Both the position numbers and the translations under genes were made by a program. Below, piece by piece: positions 2,453 through 34,109 of a stretch of 34,109 nt of DNA (positions within the stretch are counted from its first letter, which is position 1; each line of letters opens with the position of its first letter). Origin of the DNA: a virus (taxonomy: Duplodnaviria > Heunggongvirae > Uroviricota > Caudoviricetes); the IMG/VR virus record IMGVR_UViG_2913167280_000005, positions 1-34,109 of that record; one strand, 5' to 3'. The notes under the pieces are model-generated. The model saw only the letters and a program-made list of their open reading frames with translations. It was not told the DNA's origin and made no database searches.

Positions 2453-5205
2453 TGCCCTACCGCCTTACCTAAATCCGGCGCACGTCTTGGCGCTGTATCA
2501 CCAGGCTCCCACCAACTGGTGGTGTTGAACTCCCGCTGGGCCCGGTCTCTCACCCTATCGTTGTAGCCAGGGTTTGCCATCTCCTGAAGCTGTTGCAGGA
2601 TCAGATGATTGGTCACCGCTTTAGCATACCAGAGGTTGGCGAACGGGGTGATCATGCGCGCCGTCTTCAGCGCATCGGCGCCGAATGACGTCTCTTCACC
2701 TTGTAGCGCCTTCTGTGGGTTGGTGATGAGGAGTTTAGTCAACTGTTCAGCGAAGCTCAGTACAGGGCCGCCCAGAGTGGCCGCAATACTGGAGCCGTAC
2801 TGCGTGTGGTCCTGGAACAGGAAATCGCCGTAGATGCCGAATGAACCACCTTTAAGCAGCGGCTGAATCCACGTCGTAGGCTTCGTCATATCAAGCGGGT
2901 CATTACCAGTAAGCAACGAGTTCATCTGGTTGGCAAACATGCCTGCCAGCGTTGTTCCAGCAATGTATGACGCAAGGAACTTGATACCGGGCACGCGGTC
3001 AAGATCTATTGTACGGTTAACCAACTGACGGAACCCGGCAAACGACGTGGTTTTGAATAGCATGAAGCTCTTCACCAGTTGTCCGGCATCATCACGGGCA
3101 TATGTATCCAGCCCGGTCGCCGTCGTGATGGCACTGGTCATTTCTCCGTGTGTGACACCCAGCAGTTTTTGAGCCGCTTCAGCACGGGCATTACGAACCA
3201 TGCGAGCAACAGTCTGTTCTGCCTCTGCATCGAACGCCTGTTTCATCCTGGTTCGACGTTCCTGTGGGATATCACCAAGAGCCGCCAAAGCGGTTTCACT
3301 CCCGGCCCTAACCTGCGCAATTCGATCAGCCATGATTGCGTGTATCGCTTCATCAGGTACGGCGTAAATCGCGTCCGGTGTCATTCCCATGTGGCCTGCT
3401 GTGGTCATTGGCCTGAGTTCTGCTGCCGCCATGATAGCCCAGTCCTCATTGCTCCAGCCTTTGCTGGCAAGAATGGTCTTGTCTGACCCCTTCACCTCAT
3501 CCAGCGTTTTAAAAGTGCGTGTCAGTTCGCCGATGTTCTTGTACATCAGCAGACCGAACGAAGCTTTGTTGGCGCGGTCCATTGCGATAAGACCGGACCA
3601 CTTCAGCGTCTTCTCAGCAAACCAGCCGGTGATGCCACGTGACAGGTCAAAGCCGCCCATCTTCGATACCACTGCGGCATGAGAATCCACCAGCAGGCCA
3701 AGCTCAGCATTAGCTCGCTTTGCGTCACCGCTGAACAGGTTTTTGATGGTGTTAGCAGAGAGACGCATACCGCCTCGCGAGAAGCCAAGAGCCTGAGCGT
3801 TGGCACGCATGATGGCCTGGTCACTGGTCGCCGTCAGAACGCTGGTACCGAGCATGGCGCTGGTCATCAGGTTACGCAGACCGCCGACGGCTGACGTGAA
3901 CACGCTTGATTCCTGCACGCCATTCAAACCGGCCATTGAGTTAAACATGCGCTCAACCATCGTTTTCTCGCTGTTCATCTTACCGACGTCTTTACCACCG
4001 GTGACTGCACGCTGATAAATCCTGTCGTTAATCAGCTTGAAGTTATTCGCCGCGTCTGGGCCAAAGGCCTTTACAGTGCCCAGGTCTCGAGACGATGACT
4101 GAAGGTGTGACATCATCACGCCGACAACCGGCTGTTCGGTGTAGCGTTCCATGTACGCGAAGTGCGACTGTGCATCCTTGAACGCCATCACCCTGCTCTG
4201 CGAACCACGATTTTTAATGCCACCTGTTCCCATGAATGCGCCGGGGTCCAACTTGTTCGCACCGTCTGTCGCCTTGGTTTCGTAAATGGCCTCCAGCGCC
4301 TGGCGGTACTCGATGTCATTCATCGGTGAGCCGTCGAGATTCACATACTGCGAGCGGTCTTGCGTGTTGTACACGTCGTCGACCCAGGCCTGTTTAGCAA
4401 ACTCAATCGGCGGCTGCCGTCCTGATAATCGAGCCTTGGCCTGCTCCGCTGCAGAAAGGCTGGCAAGCCATTCATCGCGGCCTGAATTACGGATAAGGTC
4501 AGCATCGTCGACATACGGCAGATTCCAGTTATCACGCTGCCCGATATCAAACCCGGCGTCGTTCATCTCCTGACGAGCCCGGCTGGTCACATCACCCCAG
4601 ACCTGAGCTATTTTCTTCGCCTGTGGGTTGCCCGTGTCTTCACCGTAAATCTCTTTGAGGATCTGCAACTGCCCGGACTTCGCCACGCGCTGATCGAACA
4701 GGCTGCGGAAGCGTTGCTCGCCGAGTGCCTTACTCTGCTCGAAAAACTTCTGCACTTCTGGCCCGGCCTTCAGTAGTTCGGCGCTTAGTTGGCGAGACCA
4801 GTCCTGATATGCGCCGGTGGCGAGTTCTTCCGCCGAGGTAACAGGAATATCAGTTCTGTCTGTTGTACGACGGCCGGAGAAAATAAGTTGCTGGAGGTTG
4901 GCTGGGGTTTGCTGCTCTGGCGGGATGGCGGCATCCAGCGTATCGGTGACTTTCGATATGGCAATCGCATTTTGCGCAAGGCGCTGGCGCTTCTTATACA
5001 CGTCATGCACCACGCGCTGGCGAACCAACTCGGCGGCATCCATATATGTCTGAGCGTCGGGGATACCAGTTTTGCCTTCTCGTGCATTGTTGCGGCTGAC
5101 CTGACGGACGGCTTCCTTGATGCGGTCCTCAATATTTTTCAACTCATCGGCCTTTGGCTTGCGCCCAAGCGTCTGCGCAATGGCTTCTACACATGCCTGT
5201 TTCAT
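2449..5205 (-). CDS. large internal virion/ejection protein (about 918 aa)
   Basis: Long ORF in the structural operon; ATG at 5205 overlaps the upstream stop (TAATG) with GAGGAA upstream (track start is a GTG at 5226). Function is from size and position in a T7-like gene order. Confidence 0.6.
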   Translation of the reverse strand: MKQACVEAIAQTLGRKPKADELKNIEDRIKEAVRQVSRNNAREGKTGIPDAQTYMDAAELVRQRVVHDVYKKRQRLAQNAIAISKVTDTLDAAIPPEQQTPANLQQLIFSGRRTTDRTDIPVTSAEELATGAYQDWSRQLSAELLKAGPEVQKFFEQSKALGEQRFRSLFDQRVAKSGQLQILKEIYGEDTGNPQAKKIAQVWGDVTSRARQEMNDAGFDIGQRDNWNLPYVDDADLIRNSGRDEWLASLSAAEQAKARLSGRQPPIEFAKQAWVDDVYNTQDRSQYVNLDGSPMNDIEYRQALEAIYETKATDGANKLDPGAFMGTGGIKNRGSQSRVMAFKDAQSHFAYMERYTEQPVVGVMMSHLQSSSRDLGTVKAFGPDAANNFKLINDRIYQRAVTGGKDVGKMNSEKTMVERMFNSMAGLNGVQESSVFTSAVGGLRNLMTSAMLGTSVLTATSDQAIMRANAQALGFSRGGMRLSANTIKNLFSGDAKRANAELGLLVDSHAAVVSKMGGFDLSRGITGWFAEKTLKWSGLIAMDRANKASFGLLMYKNIGELTRTFKTLDEVKGSDKTILASKGWSNEDWAIMAAAELRPMTTAGHMGMTPDAIYAVPDEAIHAIMADRIAQVRAGSETALAALGDIPQERRTRMKQAFDAEAEQTVARMVRNARAEAAQKLLGVTHGEMTSAITTATGLDTYARDDAGQLVKSFMLFKTTSFAGFRQLVNRTIDLDRVPGIKFLASYIAGTTLAGMFANQMNSLLTGNDPLDMTKPTTWIQPLLKGGSFGIYGDFLFQDHTQYGSSIAATLGGPVLSFAEQLTKLLITNPQKALQGEETSFGADALKTARMITPFANLWYAKAVTNHLILQQLQEMANPGYNDRVRDRAQREFNTTSWWEPGDTAPRRAPDLGKAVGQ

Positions 5206-19355: not shown

Positions 19356-19393
19356 TTGACATTTTATCGAGCAATTATTACCTTAAAGGTAAT
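19356..19393 (+). promoter_or_regulatory. candidate sigma70-type promoter (TTGACA, 17-bp spacer, TACCTT) overlapped by operator dyad ATTACCTTAAAGGTAAT (site A)
   Basis: TTGACA at 19356-19361; dyad at 19377-19393 overlapping the -10 position. Confidence 0.35.
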
Positions 19394-22802: not shown

Positions 22803-22837
22803 TTACCACCAAAGTAATTAATTACCGTTGTGGTAAT
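22803..22837. promoter_or_regulatory. two adjacent operator-like dyads (GTTACCACCAAAGTAAT and ATTACCGTTGTGGTAAT; sites B0 and B) just upstream of the terminase small-subunit start
   Basis: Read directly; centres 19 bp apart; B0 is a 4/5 half-site match. Confidence 0.4.
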
Positions 22838-25765: not shown

Positions 25766-25831
25766 CGCCTTACCTCTTGGGTAATTAAAATCCACTTACG
25801 GATTAATATCAATAGTTATGCGCATTTATTT

Positions 25832-28260: not shown

Positions 28261-28292
28261 TTACCTGTACGGTGCATTTACCTGTGGGGTAA
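28261..28292. promoter_or_regulatory. rightward operator region: two dyads (TTACCTGTACGGTGC and TTACCTGTGGGGTAA) between the Cro-like and repressor genes
   Basis: Read directly; centres 17 bp apart in the 153-bp divergent intergenic region. Confidence 0.5.
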
Positions 28293-28346
28293 TATCGATT
28301 TTAATTGGCTCATAAATGATTCACTTACGAGACTAATCACCAGAGC

Positions 28347-28934
28347 ATGAAAAGTATCCACGATATTCGCCGCAAGAACCTCATCGATTTAATCGAACGC
28401 GATTTTAACGGTGTGCAAACGCGCCTGGCGGAGCGCCTGGATACTCAGCCTAATCTGGTAAACCGCTGGGCTCGTGGCACTAAAATCATCGGCGACCAGT
28501 CTGCACGTAAAATTGATATGGCAGCCAACAAGCCGACAAACTGGCTCGACACAGATCATGAACTTGTTTCTGTATCGGAATTCCAGCCGGTTGGCCCGAG
28601 TGATATCGGATTGCTGGCAGCTGAGAACCTGGCGCGCTGGATGCGTGAAAGTCGCGACCTGTCTACCCAGGGTAAGCTATCACGGGCATCAGGTGTGGCG
28701 CAGTCAACGCTGAACAGAATGCTCAACAATGAAGCCAGCATCACCCTTGCCACCCTGGAAGCCATCGCTGCCCCGTTCGGTCGCCGCGGTTATGAGTTGC
28801 TCATCCATCCGAAAGACCCCGCAGGAATCAGATACGACAGAACGAAGTACGCATCGTTACCTGAAAGCGAGAAAAGTAAGATTGAAAGTTTCATTGATTT
28901 TGTGATTACTCAGCACGCAAACAACCAGCTATAA
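28347..28934 (+). CDS. prophage repressor with two HTH (XRE-type) motifs, no S24 peptidase domain
   Basis: GVQTRLAERLDTQPNLVNRWARG and LSRASGVAQSTLNRMLNNE look like HTH segments; divergent from the Cro-like gene and followed by a strong terminator. Confidence 0.7.
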   Translation: MKSIHDIRRKNLIDLIERDFNGVQTRLAERLDTQPNLVNRWARGTKIIGDQSARKIDMAANKPTNWLDTDHELVSVSEFQPVGPSDIGLLAAENLARWMRESRDLSTQGKLSRASGVAQSTLNRMLNNEASITLATLEAIAAPFGRRGYELLIHPKDPAGIRYDRTKYASLPESEKSKIESFIDFVITQHANNQL

Positions 28935-28944
28935 CATACTGAAT

Positions 28945-28968
28945 TCTCAGACATAAGCCGCCATTGAG
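28945..28968 (+). terminator. intrinsic terminator (AAGCCGC-6 nt-GCGGCTT plus T tract) after the repressor gene
   Basis: Hairpin and TTTTTT read directly, 11 nt after the stop codon. Confidence 0.75.
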
Positions 28969-28991
28969 CGGCTTTTTTATCGCCCAAATCA

Positions 28992-29069
28992 TTACCCAAT
29001 GGGTAATTTTTTATCATCATATCTATTGACATCAACCCACATACGGATAATTATTACCTCAACGGTAAC
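28992..29069 (+). promoter_or_regulatory. leftward-operon promoter/operator: dyad ATTACCCAATGGGTAAT, -35 TTGACA (29026-29031), dyad ATTACCTCAACGGTAAC (29053-29069)
   Basis: Two dyads flank a consensus -35 hexamer; the second covers the -10/+1 region; the first ORF of the plus-strand operon follows at 29088. Confidence 0.5.
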
Positions 29070-29087
29070 AAGCCGAGGTAAAGAATC

Positions 29088-29237
29088 ATGCAGTGGAAGA
29101 TCATCAATGGTTGGTACTGCGTTACGGCGTGCGGGCTCATGAGCTGGAAGTTCCCGACGCTTGGTGAAGCAATCGAGTGGGCATTCGTCAGCAAGCTGGC
29201 GGTGAAAACAGAAATGGATATGGGGGTAACAAAGTGA
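29088..29237 (+). CDS. small hypothetical protein (49 aa), first ORF of the early-left operon; not in the ORF track
   Basis: ATG with GAGGTAAAG upstream; its stop overlaps a GTG start of the next gene (GTGA). Confidence 0.35.
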   Translation: MQWKIINGWYCVTACGLMSWKFPTLGEAIEWAFVSKLAVKTEMDMGVTK

Positions 29238-30193
29238 CTGATTTAGCAATTATCGAAATCGCACCAGATCTGGCACCAACTCTTTATGTTGAAAACGGAC
29301 TGGAATCCTTTCTTGAGCAAATCCGTGAAGCCGTAAAAGAAGTTCCTGACCTGAGCACAGCGAAAGGCCGGGCGCGCGTTGCTTCACTGGCTGCCCAGGT
29401 TTCACGCAGTAAAACTGCTGTCGAAAAGCCAGGTCGTGATTACCTGAAGCGCCTCAAGGAACAGCCGAAAGTGGTTGAGGCCGAGCTTCGCCGCTTCGTG
29501 ACTGAATGCGACAACCTTCGTGATGAAGTCCGTCGCCCTCTCACAGAATGGGAAGAAGAGCAGGAACGCATCAAAGCTGAGGAAGAGGCGAAGAAGAAGG
29601 CCGAAGAGTTGGCGGCAAAAGTCGAAGCCGACCACGAAATGGCACTGCTGATGAACGCCAATCACGACCGCGAAGTCGCTGAGAAAAAAGCAGAAGCAGA
29701 TCGCCAGCGCATTGCTCACGAAGAAGAGCTTAAGCGCCAGGCAACTGAGCAGGCAAAACGCGACGCAGAACGGAAGGCAGCGGCAGAACTGGCCGCAGCG
29801 CAAAAGCGAGAAGCTGATGCTATTGCTGCGAAGGCGCAGGCCGAGTTACTGGCGAAACAGGCAGCAGAACGTGCAGAGCAGGATCGCCTTAACGCAATCG
29901 CAAAAGCTGAAGCCGATGCGAAAGCGGCAGCGGAGAAAGCTGAAAAGGATAAGCAGGATGCGATCGAAGCAGAACGCATGAAGGCTAAACAGGCAGAAGA
30001 AGCACGCCTTGCAGAGCAGAAGCGAATCGCTGATGAAGAAGCGCGCCGCGCAGCTGACATTGAGCACCGTCGTGCAATCAATAGACAGGTAATTGCAGAT
30101 CTGGTTTCTGCCGGATTGCCAGAAGAGTTTGCCACCGAAGCTCTGAAAGCTATCGCCAGCGGAAAAGTCAGCAACACCATGATCAAGTACTGA
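29234..30193 (+). CDS. long coiled-coil protein (Ala/Glu/Lys/Arg-rich, about 319 aa)
   Basis: Highly charged heptad-like repeats (AEKAAAE, KAEADAKAAAEKAEKDKQ); start uncertain (GTG 29234 coupled to the small ORF, or the track GTG at 29177). Confidence 0.55.
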   Translation: MTDLAIIEIAPDLAPTLYVENGLESFLEQIREAVKEVPDLSTAKGRARVASLAAQVSRSKTAVEKPGRDYLKRLKEQPKVVEAELRRFVTECDNLRDEVRRPLTEWEEEQERIKAEEEAKKKAEELAAKVEADHEMALLMNANHDREVAEKKAEADRQRIAHEEELKRQATEQAKRDAERKAAAELAAAQKREADAIAAKAQAELLAKQAAERAEQDRLNAIAKAEADAKAAAEKAEKDKQDAIEAERMKAKQAEEARLAEQKRIADEEARRAADIEHRRAINRQVIADLVSAGLPEEFATEALKAIASGKVSNTMIKY

Positions 30194-30200
30194 GGTGACT

Positions 30201-30500
30201 ATGCACATTCAGCAATTCAACAACCTGAAAAAAATCGTCGCGTTGTTCGAGTCAGATTTTAAGTTGTCATCGCAGGTGTACGACCGCCACGTCGAACTGA
30301 TCGACGCGGTGAGCGGTATTGAAATGGACCCAGCATTCGAGCGCGCCCTGATTCGTACCGGTGTTCGTCCTGAAATTCTGGAAGCAGCGAAGGAGAGCGT
30401 CGAGTACGAAGATCTATTCGCCAGTTTCATCAGCGAACTGACCAGCGTCGTGGCGAAACTGGACGTGGCTGACCAGGTAGACAGTGCGAGGGCAGCATGA
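30201..30500 (+). CDS. hypothetical protein (about 99 aa)
   Basis: ATG at 30201 with GAGG upstream (track start is a GTG at 30195); stop overlaps the next start. Confidence 0.5.
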   Translation: MHIQQFNNLKKIVALFESDFKLSSQVYDRHVELIDAVSGIEMDPAFERALIRTGVRPEILEAAKESVEYEDLFASFISELTSVVAKLDVADQVDSARAA

Positions 30501-30730
30501 GTAATCAAGATATTTTGACTGTCCATCCAACTACTGAAGCGAACTGGACTAACGAGAACGTCAGAACCGAAGGATTGCTCATTCGCGACTACTTCGCAGC
30601 AAAGGCTATGCAAGGGATGCTGTCTAACCCTGGCATGTGGGACCTCATCAATGAAAAGAACGCACAGGTAGTGGCAATAGATGCATACCTGGTGGCCGAT
30701 GCAATGCTGAAAGCTCGGGAGGGTCAATGA
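30497..30730 (+). CDS. hypothetical protein (77 aa)
   Basis: ATGA overlaps on both sides within the recombination module. Confidence 0.5.
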   Translation: MSNQDILTVHPTTEANWTNENVRTEGLLIRDYFAAKAMQGMLSNPGMWDLINEKNAQVVAIDAYLVADAMLKAREGQ

Positions 30731-31548
30731 CACCTGGCATCTACTTCGACATCAGCAATGCTGACTACCACGCCGGGGACGGCGTGAGTAAGTCTCAGCT
30801 CGATATGGTCGCCAAAAACCCTTCGCTGCTCCAGTGGGTGAAAGCAGCGCCAGAGGACGAAGAGAAAAAATCCGCGCTGGACATGGGAACAGCGCTGCAC
30901 TGCCTGCTGCTTGAGCCTGGCGAGTTCGATAAACGTTTCATCGTAGCGCCAGAGTTCAACCGCCGTACCAATGACGGAAAGGCCGCTGAGAAATCATTCC
31001 TCGAAAGCGTCGCGGATCTAGGCATGACGGTGATGACTGCTGACGAAGGCCGCCGCCTGAAGTTGATGCGTGAAAGTGCCCTGGCTCACCCAGCGGCACG
31101 CTGGATGCTTGAAGCTCCAGGCCACTGCGAAGCGTCGATGTACTGGAACGGCGAGGCCACTGGCGAATTGTGTCGCATCCGCCCAGACAAGTGGCTGAAC
31201 GATCACAACGTGATCGTCGACGTGAAAAAGGTAGCCGACATGGAACGGTTCGCCAGACACATTGAAGAGTTCCGCTACCACGTTCAGGACGCGTTTTATA
31301 GAGAAGGTGCGCTGCGCACCACCGGGGAACCACACGGATTCTTCTTCCTGGCTGTCAGCGAAACAATCGACTGCGGTCGCTACCCGGTGCGCGTGTTCCA
31401 ACTCGACGAAGAAGACGTTAACACCGGGCACTCATTGTTCCGCCGGGATCTGAATACCTATCACGAATGCCGAGTTAATAACGACTGGGGCGGCGTGGAG
31501 ATAATTAAACGCCCTGCGTGGGCACGCAAACAGGATATGTACATATGA
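30727..31548 (+). CDS. PD-(D/E)xK exonuclease (RecE C-terminal-domain-like)
   Basis: N-terminal YFDISNADYHAGDGVSKSQL and a later IVDVKKV (D-x-K) block, recalled as typical of RecE-like phage exonucleases; immediately upstream of the annealase. Confidence 0.7.
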   Translation: MTPGIYFDISNADYHAGDGVSKSQLDMVAKNPSLLQWVKAAPEDEEKKSALDMGTALHCLLLEPGEFDKRFIVAPEFNRRTNDGKAAEKSFLESVADLGMTVMTADEGRRLKLMRESALAHPAARWMLEAPGHCEASMYWNGEATGELCRIRPDKWLNDHNVIVDVKKVADMERFARHIEEFRYHVQDAFYREGALRTTGEPHGFFFLAVSETIDCGRYPVRVFQLDEEDVNTGHSLFRRDLNTYHECRVNNDWGGVEIIKRPAWARKQDMYI

Positions 31549-32396
31549 GCAACGACATCGCAATCACCTCACAGCCTGGCGCTACTGTCGGAACCGCTGC
31601 CGCAATTTTCAGCCAGGAAGGTATGAATCAACTGGTGCGTTTCGCCGACTTGATGGCGCAAAGCAAAGCCACTGTTCCGGCGCACCTTGCCGGGAAGCCT
31701 GCCGATTGTTTGGCCGTTACCATGCAGGCTGCACAGTGGGGCATGAACCCGTTCGCCGTGGCGCAGAAAACGCATGTGGTAAATGGACAACTTGGTTACG
31801 AGGCTCAACTTGTTAACGCTGTTGTCCAGCAATCTGGCGCAATCAAAGGGAGATTTCACTACGAATACAAAGGCGAAGGAGCAGCACTTGAGTGTCGCGT
31901 AGGAGCAATAATTCGTGGTGAACAGGATATAACCTGGAATGAATGGCTGTGCATATCCAGCATAACAACAAAAAATTCTCCTCTATGGAAAACAAACCCA
32001 AAACAACAGATCGGATACCTTCAAGTAAAAAACTGGGCCAGAGCTCATACCCCTGGGGCAATTCTTGGTGTTTACACGCCTGATGAACTACAGGAAACAG
32101 CTCCACGCGCTGAGCGTGACATCACTCCACCAGCAGGCACTGCCGCAGGGATTAACAACCTGATTAACTCCAAACCTGAGCAGCAGGAAGAGCGCAGCAA
32201 GAATACCGACGAACGGGAACCCGATGAAATCCTGTCAGCGTTCACCGATGCAGCCATGACCTACAACACCGTTAAGGATCTGGACAAGGCCTACACGTAC
32301 GTTGCCAAAAAACTGGCAAACGACGATGAGCGCCTGGCGAAGGCCACCGACGTTTACACCATCCGTCGCGATGAGTTGAACGAAATCCCGGTTTAA
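31545..32396 (+). CDS. single-strand annealing protein (RecT/Bet family)
   Basis: QWGMNPF block resembles the lambda Bet QYGLNPW region; ATG at 31545 overlaps the exonuclease stop (track start is an upstream GTG at 31518). Confidence 0.7.
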   Translation: MSNDIAITSQPGATVGTAAAIFSQEGMNQLVRFADLMAQSKATVPAHLAGKPADCLAVTMQAAQWGMNPFAVAQKTHVVNGQLGYEAQLVNAVVQQSGAIKGRFHYEYKGEGAALECRVGAIIRGEQDITWNEWLCISSITTKNSPLWKTNPKQQIGYLQVKNWARAHTPGAILGVYTPDELQETAPRAERDITPPAGTAAGINNLINSKPEQQEERSKNTDEREPDEILSAFTDAAMTYNTVKDLDKAYTYVAKKLANDDERLAKATDVYTIRRDELNEIPV

Positions 32397-32449
32397 CGAT
32401 CACCACCGCGGCGCGAGAAGCGCCGCACATGCAACCAAGTGAGGAATTT

Positions 32450-32698
32450 ATGAAAGGTGCATTCGACAAAAAGAAATTGCTGGCGGTGGTGCCATTGTCA
32501 TGGAGCACAATCGATCGGCTTGAGCAGGCAGGTGAATTTCCTAAGCGCTGGTATATCACCGATAAGCGCTGCGCGTGGACTCAGGAAGAGGTAGAGAAGT
32601 GGCTGGATGAGCGCAAGGCAAATAGCCCTGATGAATTTCAAGGAAAGAAGCCCCCGGTTGAACTTCGAAAATATCGCCCGGTGAGTAGCGCCGCATGA
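32450..32698 (+). CDS. AlpA-like excisionase/transcriptional regulator (about 82 aa)
   Basis: LLAVVPLSWSTIDRLEQAGEFPKRWYITDKRCAWTQEEVEKWL fits the AlpA pattern; GAGG 5 nt upstream of the ATG at 32450 (track start at 32429). Confidence 0.65.
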   Translation: MKGAFDKKKLLAVVPLSWSTIDRLEQAGEFPKRWYITDKRCAWTQEEVEKWLDERKANSPDEFQGKKPPVELRKYRPVSSAA

Positions 32699-32811
32699 CT
32701 GCGCTCACGCGGCACTTCGATAAATGGTCAGGCTGGTATTGGTGCCTGGCCGCAATCAGCGCCTGGCTGTTCCTGCTGGCGCTAATCGCAAGAGAGGGCT
32801 GGATACGATGA
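32695..32811 (+). CDS. 38-aa single-TM hydrophobic peptide, overlapping both neighbouring genes; not in the ORF track
   Basis: Translated by hand as MTALTRHFDKWSGWYWCLAAISAWLFLLALIAREGWIR; start overlaps the AlpA-like stop (ATGA) and stop overlaps the next ATG. Confidence 0.35.
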   Translation: MTALTRHFDKWSGWYWCLAAISAWLFLLALIAREGWIR

Positions 32812-33113
32812 AAAGCATTTCAAGAGCGGAGCGTTATCGCAATGATTATGTGCCGCTTCGCCGCTGTGAGAAGGTTGTGGCGGTCACTGCTGAAGCAATG
32901 GAGATAGAGAGCCGCGCAGTAGAACGTGAAAAACGTGGGCAGTATCGCATTGCCGCCCGTCTTTGGCTGGAATGTATGGACGCGGCACAGGGTGAAGTTG
33001 AGCGCGCCCGTATCGCAGTACGTCGAACTCAATGCATTGCGCGGGGAAATGGCCTGCGCCGAGGCGAGTATTCTGGAATTAGTGCAGGTTGTAATGGGGT
33101 GGTTTATGACTAA
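32808..33113 (+). CDS. PerC-like small transcriptional regulator (about 101 aa)
   Basis: AEAMEIESRAVEREKRGQYRIAARLW resembles the conserved PerC-family core (recalled); ATG at 32808 with GAGAGGG upstream (track ORF starts at 32724). Confidence 0.45.
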   Translation: MKSISRAERYRNDYVPLRRCEKVVAVTAEAMEIESRAVEREKRGQYRIAARLWLECMDAAQGEVERARIAVRRTQCIARGNGLRRGEYSGISAGCNGVVYD

Positions 33114-33750
33114 GTACACGCTAATCTACGCAGATCCGCCTTGGGTTTACCGTGACAAAGCTGCCGACGGAAGCCGCGGGGCCGGGTTCAAATACCCGGT
33201 AATGAACGTCATGGATATATGCCGCCTGCCAGTATGGGATCTGGCCGCCGACGATTGCCTTCTGGCGATGTGGTGGGTGCCGACTCAACCGGTCGAAGCG
33301 CTGAAGGTTGTCGAGGCATGGGGATTCAGGCTGATGACCATGAAGGGCTTCACCTGGCACAAAACGAATAAGCACAAAGGCAACAGCGCGATAGGAATGG
33401 GCCACATGACCCGGGCGAACAGCGAAGACTGTCTGTTTGCCGTTCGAGGAAAACTACCGGCGCGCATGGATGCCTCGATATGCCAGCACATCACGGCACC
33501 GCGGATGGAGAACTCGCGCAAGCCGGATCTCATTCGCGAAAAACTGGTGCAGTTGCTTGGCGATGTACCAAGGATCGAGCTTTTCGCCCGCCAGTCGTCG
33601 CATGGCTTCGACGTATGGGGCAATCAGTGCGAAGGCCCGGCGGTGAAGTTGCAACCAGGATATGCGCTTGATATCGCTGGATTGACGCAGGCATTAAAAA
33701 ACACTCCGCTATCACCATCAGATAAGCAGGGCCAGGAGCGTGCAGCATGA
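33106..33750 (+). CDS. MT-A70-family DNA N6-adenine methyltransferase
   Basis: IYADPPW catalytic motif near the N-terminus; ATG at 33106 (an alternative ATG at 33094 is in frame; track start at 32926). Confidence 0.85.
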   Translation: MTKYTLIYADPPWVYRDKAADGSRGAGFKYPVMNVMDICRLPVWDLAADDCLLAMWWVPTQPVEALKVVEAWGFRLMTMKGFTWHKTNKHKGNSAIGMGHMTRANSEDCLFAVRGKLPARMDASICQHITAPRMENSRKPDLIREKLVQLLGDVPRIELFARQSSHGFDVWGNQCEGPAVKLQPGYALDIAGLTQALKNTPLSPSDKQGQERAA

Positions 33751-34109
33751 GTGGATCACTGGAAAAACTTGCTATTCAGCAATATGAATTAACGACTGAA
33801 ATTAAACGTTTGAAAAAACTTTCTGGAGAAATTATTGAAAAATGCCACCCAGAGGATATTGAATCAAACGATCCTGCTAAAGGTTATTTCAACCATATCC
33901 AGTGGGTAATTCAGCTTCATAAAGAGCAGGAGCCAGACTACCCATTTGGACCGGAAAGCTTTGGCGACATATTTAATGCTGAAGTTACCTGCCCTCATTG
34001 TCGTGAATGGTACAGAATACAGAGGAAAGAAATACTTCCTCTTAAACGCAAGCTTGGTTCAGTTAAAGGAGCAATCACCAAAGCCGGAAAACGACTTGCC
34101 ACAGCCTAA
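33747..34109 (+). CDS. hypothetical protein (120 aa) with Cys/His motifs, AT-rich gene
   Basis: ATGA overlap with the methyltransferase stop; CH..(n)..CPHC motifs; visibly lower GC than neighbouring genes; stop is at the window end. Confidence 0.5.
   Translation: MSGSLEKLAIQQYELTTEIKRLKKLSGEIIEKCHPEDIESNDPAKGYFNHIQWVIQLHKEQEPDYPFGPESFGDIFNAEVTCPHCREWYRIQRKEILPLKRKLGSVKGAITKAGKRLATA

Follow-up and report, generated by a model that had tools for sequence, protein, structure and literature searches.

A small open reading frame between the AlpA-like and PerC-like genes of an epsilon15/phiV10-type prophage very probably encodes a membrane protein of the gp32 family

The window, that is, the whole stretch of 34,109 nucleotides (nt) analysed here (IMG/VR record IMGVR_UViG_2913167280_000005, Caudoviricetes), carries in its early-left operon a small open reading frame (ORF) lying between a gene for an AlpA-family regulator and a gene for a PerC-family activator-like protein. 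A first-pass annotation had proposed, at 32695-32811, an unannotated single-transmembrane peptide tightly coupled to both neighbours. The ORF was found at exactly this position with the sequence quoted there, and the ATGA overlaps with both neighbouring genes were confirmed, 4 nt each, as befits a real gene; the three bases of the peptide's ATG are shared with the last codon and the TGA stop of the AlpA-like gene. In the 3.6 kb examined, 54 ORFs of at least 25 amino acids (aa) were present, so that a length of 38 codons alone is unremarkable, and the case for a gene therefore rests on the comparison with relatives. Considering this comparison, the ORF is very probably a genuine gene under selection that encodes a small membrane protein.

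For the comparison, copies were gathered from phage records, IMG/VR contigs, species-representative genomes and metagenome contigs. The ORF was intact in all 130 homologous copies found in intact contexts, which encoded 35 distinct peptides; 100 copies had 38 codons and 30 had 39. The only disrupted copy (L133) was a decayed remnant, in which a deletion fused codon 21 to the integrase gene and alpA was frameshifted too. Variable columns at codon positions 1, 2 and 3 numbered 18, 13 and 28 of 36, respectively. The ratio of nonsynonymous to synonymous substitution rates (dN/dS, pooled Nei-Gojobori) was calculated for a first and an enlarged set of sequences. In the claimed frame it was 0.23 in the first set and 0.30 in the enlarged set, while sense frame +1 gave 1.42 and 0.97 and sense frame +2 gave 1.50 and 1.49; the AlpA baseline in the enlarged set was 0.16. 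The corresponding ratio of proportions (pN/pS) in the claimed frame was 0.30-0.40. One antisense frame had a pN/pS of 0.40 (dN/dS 0.34), and its third positions are common to the claimed frame; no antisense ORF spanning the small ORF was present in the window. Conservation of the frame in relatives had been proposed beforehand as a check, and the outcome was clearly positive: the ORF is under purifying selection in the claimed frame.

The geometry of the locus was conserved as well. NTGA overlaps were present at both ends in all 72 distinct regions of the 38-aa type. At the peptide start, the overlap was ATGA in 70 regions and GTGA in 2, and at the PerC start, ATGA in 50 and GTGA in 22. The 39-aa variants had ATGA overlaps at both ends.

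Judged by its sequence, the window peptide is a member of the catalogued gp32 family (PHROG 17484), not a new gene. Orthologues at 71-74% identity were gp32 of epsilon15 (NP_848240.1, UniProt Q858E3), gp35 of phiV10 (YP_512290.1, Q286Y2) and gp33 of Tyrion (YP_009287765.1). Like the window peptide, all three consist of 38 aa with a predicted single helix and occupy the slot between the AlpA-like and PerC-like genes with 4-nt overlaps. The window copy differs from them at 10-11 positions, for example, F8, C17 and A32, and its exact sequence was absent from a collection of 15 billion proteins. The match to PHROG 17484 ('membrane protein', category 'moron, auxiliary metabolic gene and host takeover') covered the full length (residues 1-38 against profile positions 1-38 of 38; E = 1.4e-20). 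The gene order, with the AlpA-like, peptide and PerC-like genes downstream of recT, was identical in phiV10, epsilon15, Tyrion, the window and the 39-aa variants.

A HMMER scan of 1.84 billion representatives returned five real clusters, of 38-45 aa and without exception in the same slot, and neither a larger protein containing the peptide as a domain nor distant homologues; hits longer than 45 aa were repetitive or unaligned proteins and were judged spurious. The hosts of the phages and prophages that carry the peptide include Escherichia, Salmonella, Klebsiella, Enterobacter, Citrobacter, Pseudocitrobacter and Superficieibacter, and the epsilon15 gp32 sequence was recorded on at least 1000 contigs, Salmonella genomes among them. 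In one related locus (L097, PerC 57% identical), the peptide was absent, and the gene is therefore dispensable. At 2515-3000 of that locus, alpA and perC are separated by an AT-rich insert, which carries a second PerC-like ORF; this ORF is diverged and measures 90-137 aa, according to the start chosen. Cluster members of 77 and 119 aa were considered as isoforms and rejected because of alpA frameshifts (P0003, P0010, P0012 and P0013). In the 119-aa calls, the shifted alpA frame enters the peptide frame and yields a fusion of an AlpA fragment with the peptide. Both kinds of calls are probably sequencing errors or pseudogenes.

The description of the peptide as unannotated holds for the window genome, since a Logan contig (L091) that is 100% identical to window positions 28808-34109 has no gene call there. 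It does not hold for the family, whose members in epsilon15, phiV10, Tyrion and SPN1S are annotated as 'membrane protein'; the phiV10 gp35 record adds 'one C terminal transmembrane helix predicted'. Bacterial genome annotation, in contrast to the reference phage records, mostly overlooks the gene. The slot was without a gene call in L092, too. The phiV10-type region occurred in 536 of 5426 complete Escherichia coli genomes (~10%), and in the sampled rows of this 536-genome search, only the two flanking regulators were listed under the match. In E. coli strain 2452, the one chromosome inspected, the Prokaryotic Genome Annotation Pipeline (PGAP) left a gap of 157 bp at the slot.

Next to the small ORF, the operon and the prophage were characterized (Table 1). 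Sequence comparison places the window as a guaA-adjacent Uetakevirus-like (epsilon15/phiV10-type) prophage of an Escherichia sp. E2593-like strain. Its nucleotide identity to epsilon15/phiV10-type phages was ~70-79%, and its PerC-like protein matched one named from Escherichia sp. E2593 at 100% identity. The AlpA-like gene is the orthologue of epsilon15 gp33, and the label of the PHROG family that it matched is 'excisionase and transcriptional regulator'. In L091, the early-left operon is followed by the integrase gene and then by guaA. Past the right end of the window (L091 6736-8306), the prophage adjoins guaA, and the integrase gene is convergent on the early-left operon; the same layout was seen in L093, L094 and L096. 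The last ORF of the operon (33747-34109, 120 aa, with a C-x-x-C motif) adjoins the integrase gene in L091. For this ORF, the best Pfam match (E = 0.038, a weak zinc-ribbon hint) was not significant, and PHROG gave no match. Its slot in relatives holds other genes (DUF1382, Dam methylase or the epsilon15 'transacetylase repressor').

Table 1. Positions of the small ORF, its parts and the associated operon features in the window
Feature	Position	Strand	Details
Two operator palindromes	28991-29007 and 29053-29069		epsilon15 type, ATTACC-N5-GGTAA[T/C]; bracket the promoter-like site
Promoter-like site	29026-29054	+	Head of early-left operon; TTGACA-17-AATTAT
Upstream AlpA-family regulator/excisionase-like gene	32450-32698	+	82 aa; Pfam PF05930 (Phage_AlpA), E = 1.8e-5; phrog_66, E = 6e-14
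Small ORF	32695-32811	+	38 aa plus stop, ATG start; encodes MTALTRHFDKWSGWYWCLAAISAWLFLLALIAREGWIR; orthologue of epsilon15 gp32/phiV10 gp35
ATGA at peptide start	32695-32698	+	Start codon overlaps the stop of the AlpA-like gene
Basic Trp-rich juxtamembrane motif	32704-32739	+	Codons 4-15; L-x-R-H-x-x-K-W-S-G-W-Y; predicted cytoplasmic
Predicted transmembrane helix	32734-32790	+	Codons 14-32; WYWCLAAISAWLFLLALIA
Shine-Dalgarno-like element of PerC	32791-32798	+	AGAGAGGG; purine-rich; codons R33-E34-G35; 9 nt upstream of the PerC ATG
ATGA at PerC start	32808-32811	+	Start codon of the PerC-like gene overlaps the peptide stop
Downstream PerC-family transcriptional activator-like gene	32808-33113	+	101 aa; Pfam PF06069, E = 2.7e-6; phrog_868, E = 2.5e-44

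In the epsilon15 record, palindromes of the type seen at the head of the operon lie upstream of gp37 and are annotated as repressor sites. Further ATTACC-N5-GGTAAT palindromes were scattered in the prophage (1866-1882, 19377-19393, 22821-22837, 25769-25785 and 28277-28293). Directly upstream of the peptide, no promoter-like site was found on the sense strand; the only nearby minus-strand promoter-like site lay inside perC, at chance level (4 found versus 4.6 expected). The GC content of the peptide gene resembled that of its neighbours. RNA structure at the peptide start did not go beyond that of shuffled sequences (z = +0.27). Between recT and alpA (32408-32426), a GC-rich hairpin was observed (GCGGCGC-GAGAA-GCGCCGC; centroid -16.4 kcal/mol, no U tract), in the same place as the epsilon15 feature 'stem-loop; transcriptional pausing'; its z-score was only -1.9.

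NTGA overlaps of 4 nt were found at 7 of the 10 junctions of the early-left operon in the window. They are thus the norm of the operon, and the geometry supports a real gene rather than a special tie to AlpA and PerC. The coupling claimed at first therefore stands as the mark of a genuine operon gene and falls as a sign of a specific functional link to the two regulators. No conserved Shine-Dalgarno sequence was found upstream of the peptide in the 72 distinct regions, and the commonest upstream 20-mer (33 of 72), CGCCCAGTAAGTAACGCCGC, is without the GGTGA of the window; termination-reinitiation is therefore the likely route for the peptide. The purine-rich element in the last codons was present at the same distance from PerC in all variants, and its bases may both code for the peptide and serve PerC initiation. 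Through these C-terminal codons, the synthesis of PerC could also hinge on the peptide being translated.

Regarding the peptide itself, the claim of a single transmembrane segment agrees with the models, which predicted one hydrophobic 19-mer and one helix. The hydrophobic stretch W14-A32 had a Kyte-Doolittle mean of 1.97 (2.59 for its 15-residue core) and carries no charged residues, and AlphaFold2 run on the single sequence gave one continuous helix over residues 3-37 with a mean predicted local distance difference test score (pLDDT) of 81.6. Among the 35 distinct peptides, M1, W11, S12, G13, L18, A23, W24, L27, I31 and the C-terminal Trp were invariant, and R6, H7, K/R10, Y15 and G35 nearly so. 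The window peptide carries all of W11, S12, G13, L18, A23, W24, L27, I31 and W36.

A shorter form of 32 aa fills the same slot in Enterobacter prophages, for example, in BUCT554 (QQM14171.1). Its cluster had 74 members, one of them on at least 1000 contigs, and its homology to the 38-aa type was supported by hhalign (probability 97%, E = 1.1e-10) and by a match to phrog_17484 (E = 5.2e-5). It has in common with the window peptide the N-terminal M-T-A-L-x-[KR]-H-x-x-[KR]-W-S, followed by a hydrophobic helix, and keeps the core L..[RK]H..[KR]WS..Y, whereas the REGWIR tail, G13, W14 and W24 are missing. Its stop codon, 13 nt before the PerC start and without an overlap, falls directly on the purine-rich element. 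Since this form stops exactly at the end of the helix, the six-residue tail is not essential. The core shared by the whole family is thus the helix together with the basic, aromatic motif L-x-[RK]-H-x-x-[KR]-W-S at the N terminus. In a 32-aa variant of Candidatus Erwinia dacicola (L099 2927-3025), the MTALKK N-terminus and the ATGA overlap were lost, and the sole available start was a GTG that precedes the alpA stop by 14 nt; this may represent decay in a symbiont genome.

Taken together, we consider it probable, at about 0.6 for the whole statement, that the ORF is a genuine gene whose product is a gp32-family accessory membrane factor, inserted with the N terminus in and the C terminus out (N-in/C-out), that acts on a conserved host inner-membrane protein. 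Because the operon is headed by repressor operators, the peptide would not be produced in the lysogen and would appear upon induction or infection. Ribosomes ending alpA would reinitiate at the overlapping ATG of the peptide, and those ending the peptide would pass to perC with the help of the Shine-Dalgarno-like element in codons 33-35. The basic Trp-rich N-terminus would then stay in the cytoplasm and the short tail would reach the periplasm; the net charge of the N-terminal segment was equal to or higher than that of the tail in all 16 representative variants, which fits this orientation. In the membrane, the peptide may bind its host partner, as small membrane proteins of bacteria usually do, and have an accessory, dispensable function, as is the case for non-essential, host-directed genes in the early-left operons of lambdoid phages. 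A conserved target is suggested by the presence of the same peptide in phages and prophages of the genera listed above.

Kil-like, toxin-like and exclusion roles had been raised in the first-pass annotation, and on these the evidence speaks neither way. Of the specific roles, we tentatively place first, by analogy, that the peptide blocks division or envelope functions in a Kil-like manner while the phage grows lytically. In the same tentative way, the gp32 family might be a new kind of phage host-takeover factor, a transmembrane peptide of 32-39 aa that binds, in lytic development, a conserved enterobacterial inner-membrane machine such as the divisome, FtsH/HflKC or an insertase. The probabilities behind these and the following statements are rough, and what is left after them belongs to other rivals or to a role outside those considered. 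Biologically, the peptide is one more small phage membrane protein, for which the idea of a host target is at most a reasonable guess.

Several points weigh against this interpretation. A literature search found no experimental paper on the peptide gene or the gp32 family, and the ZX5 paper was silent on the gene. Its translation and membrane insertion are predicted. The peptide had no match in Pfam (E <= 1), NCBIfam, PADLOC (E <= 10) or PDB sequences, and neither these collections nor the 1.84 billion representatives revealed a similarity to Kil, CIII or another characterised family. The charge bias was weak in the window copy (+1 versus +1 before termini and His are counted). The conserved positions of the transmembrane segment did not lie on one helix face (variability moment p = 0.55), so that a single conserved face, as for a defined helix-helix interface, was not supported. 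Finally, the Shine-Dalgarno-like element of PerC lies in the tail codons, and part of the conservation of the tail may therefore reflect the PerC initiation region rather than the peptide.

Two other roles at the membrane were judged unlikely, and to the same degree. In the first, the peptide would act like CIII, binding FtsH (or HflKC) and protecting unstable Xis/AlpA-like and PerC-like regulators. It does sit between two small regulators in an early-left operon, and with MgtS and MgtR, there are precedents for a small membrane protein modulating FtsH-dependent degradation (PMC12648545). Yet no Pfam family, Lambda_CIII included, matched at E <= 1, the 4-nt adjacency to the regulators is a rule of the whole operon, and both AlpA and PerC persist without the peptide in L097. 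CIII is also generally known to work via an amphipathic helix, not a transmembrane anchor.

In the second, the peptide would be a superinfection-exclusion or immunity factor that blocks the entry of incoming phage DNA at the inner membrane during lytic growth. Membrane proteins with this effect on DNA entry include T4 Imm and Sp and HK97 gp15. A small early protein of the inner membrane, as predicted here, would suit such a task, and the PHROG category includes moron and host-takeover functions. The gene is not a moron, however: it lacks a separate promoter, it is similar to its neighbours in GC content, and its operon is under repressor operators, so that the peptide would not protect lysogens. 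Known exclusion proteins are larger and unrelated, and no PADLOC, Pfam or NCBIfam match was obtained.

A membrane-damaging toxin of the type I or holin-like kind, which would depolarise the inner membrane, is less probable still. Hok, Ldr, TisB and Ibs are likewise short and hydrophobic (PMC12648545), but the peptide matched no Pfam toxin family at E <= 1 and no NCBIfam family, and no antisense ORF is open. Instead of a stand-alone locus with its own promoter and antisense RNA, the gene is embedded in an operon, and the RNA at its start is no more structured than shuffles. Moreover, the transmembrane segment is free of charged residues, and the lysis cassette of these phages lies elsewhere in the genome.

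Slightly more improbable than a toxin is a pure translational relay from alpA to perC in which the peptide itself has no function. The 4-nt overlaps at both ends, the Shine-Dalgarno-like element in the last codons and the dispensability of the gene in L097 would all be expected of a relay. A relay would, however, need neither a constant length of 38 or 39 codons nor a transmembrane helix, whereas the amino acids are under purifying selection (dN/dS 0.23-0.30), with invariant residues and a hydrophobic helix in every variant. The 32-aa variant keeps the core of the peptide even though the overlap is gone. An insertion-sensing arrest leader of the MifM/SecM type was rejected. In such leaders, the transmembrane segment must clear the ribosome tunnel before the arrest or stop site is reached, but only 6 residues follow the helix here and none do in the 32-aa variant.

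That the peptide inhibits the O-antigen polymerase or otherwise modifies the O-antigen, in the manner of D3 Iap or the epsilon15 alpha-polymerase inhibitor, is very improbable. The phages of this type are O-antigen specific, epsilon15 is serotype-converting, and small phage proteins that alter the O-antigen exist, namely, Iap and Gnarl1-3 (PMC12373910). In epsilon15, though, this role is annotated to gp22 (66 aa, two transmembrane helices), beside a Wzy-like gene at another locus, and the identity of the peptide stays at ~66-74% between hosts whose O-antigens are unrelated (Salmonella, E. coli O157, Klebsiella and Enterobacter); both points argue against an Iap-like role. Wzy proteins are generally known to be highly variable, and expression of the peptide is not expected in the lysogen.

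The least probable reading, in which the stretch is an N-terminal extension of PerC from the in-frame ATG at 32724, is effectively refuted. It is annotated in this way in several records: Klebsiella phage records extend PerC upstream and leave the small ORF uncalled, and many automated PerC calls are 119-139 aa long. The PerC-frame ORF of the window would have 129 aa (32724-33113), and in 40 of 47 distinct variants, no stop interrupts the PerC frame over at least the 25 codons that precede its start. Against this, the dN/dS of the extension frame was 1.4-1.5, stops occurred 0-5 codons from the PerC start in 7 of the 47 variants, including the abundant phiV10 type, 15 of the 47 had no in-frame upstream ATG, the usual extension ATG simply arises when the conserved codons AAA-TGG-TCA-GGN-TGG (K-W-S-G-W) are read in another frame, and the PerC N-termini align from the codon that overlaps the peptide stop.

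Homology thus supports the [A/G]TG overlapping the peptide stop as the putative start of PerC. RefSeq phiV10 and the PGAP annotation of E. coli instead use an ATG farther downstream. Many of the 119-139 aa PerC calls in databases look like over-extensions. The annotation of the PerC start was inconsistent among the loci compared (L001 2907-2940, phiV10; L089 and L090 2830-2910; L136 1299-1455). For annotation, this means that a conserved, selected gene was skipped in the records checked and elsewhere absorbed into an over-long PerC, misstating the PerC start.

Compared with known systems, the gp32 family resembles epsilon15 gp22 and D3 Iap in that all are small membrane peptides encoded by O-antigen-specific phages. 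gp22 differs in having 66 aa and two transmembrane helices and in lying beside an O-antigen ligase-family (Wzy-like) gene ~5 kb from gp32, while the gp32 family, unlike gp22 and Iap, is conserved across hosts with unrelated O-antigens. The Gnarl proteins are a mere analogy; the relevant prophage of CFT073 is P2-like.

Lambda CIII, a small product of the early-left operon, acts as an inhibitor of FtsH, whose substrates include Xis and CII of the same phage. The peptide is likewise a small early-left-operon product with a possible link to unstable regulators encoded nearby. CIII differs from it as a 54-aa, amphipathic and peripheral protein with no transmembrane anchor and no sequence similarity.

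Lambda kil also lies in the early operon beside the recombination genes. Like the peptide, Kil and other phage or prophage division inhibitors are small, non-essential and encoded next to recombination genes in an early operon under repressor control. Kil, however, is not a transmembrane protein and has no sequence similarity to the peptide, which is thus not a member of the Kil family. A hydrophobic inhibitor of the divisome in the inner membrane is known from Caulobacter, in which SidA has ~29 aa.

In form, the peptide is like MgtS, MgtR, AcrZ and KdpF, which have ~30-50 aa, a single transmembrane helix and very short tails (PMC12648545). These four differ in being chromosomal and stress-regulated, and no homology to the peptide was found. 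Bacterial small membrane proteins act by binding a larger membrane protein (PMC12648545). If the gp32-family peptide does target a conserved membrane machine of the host, it would offer a compact tool and extend the set of early-operon functions of the Kil and CIII type.

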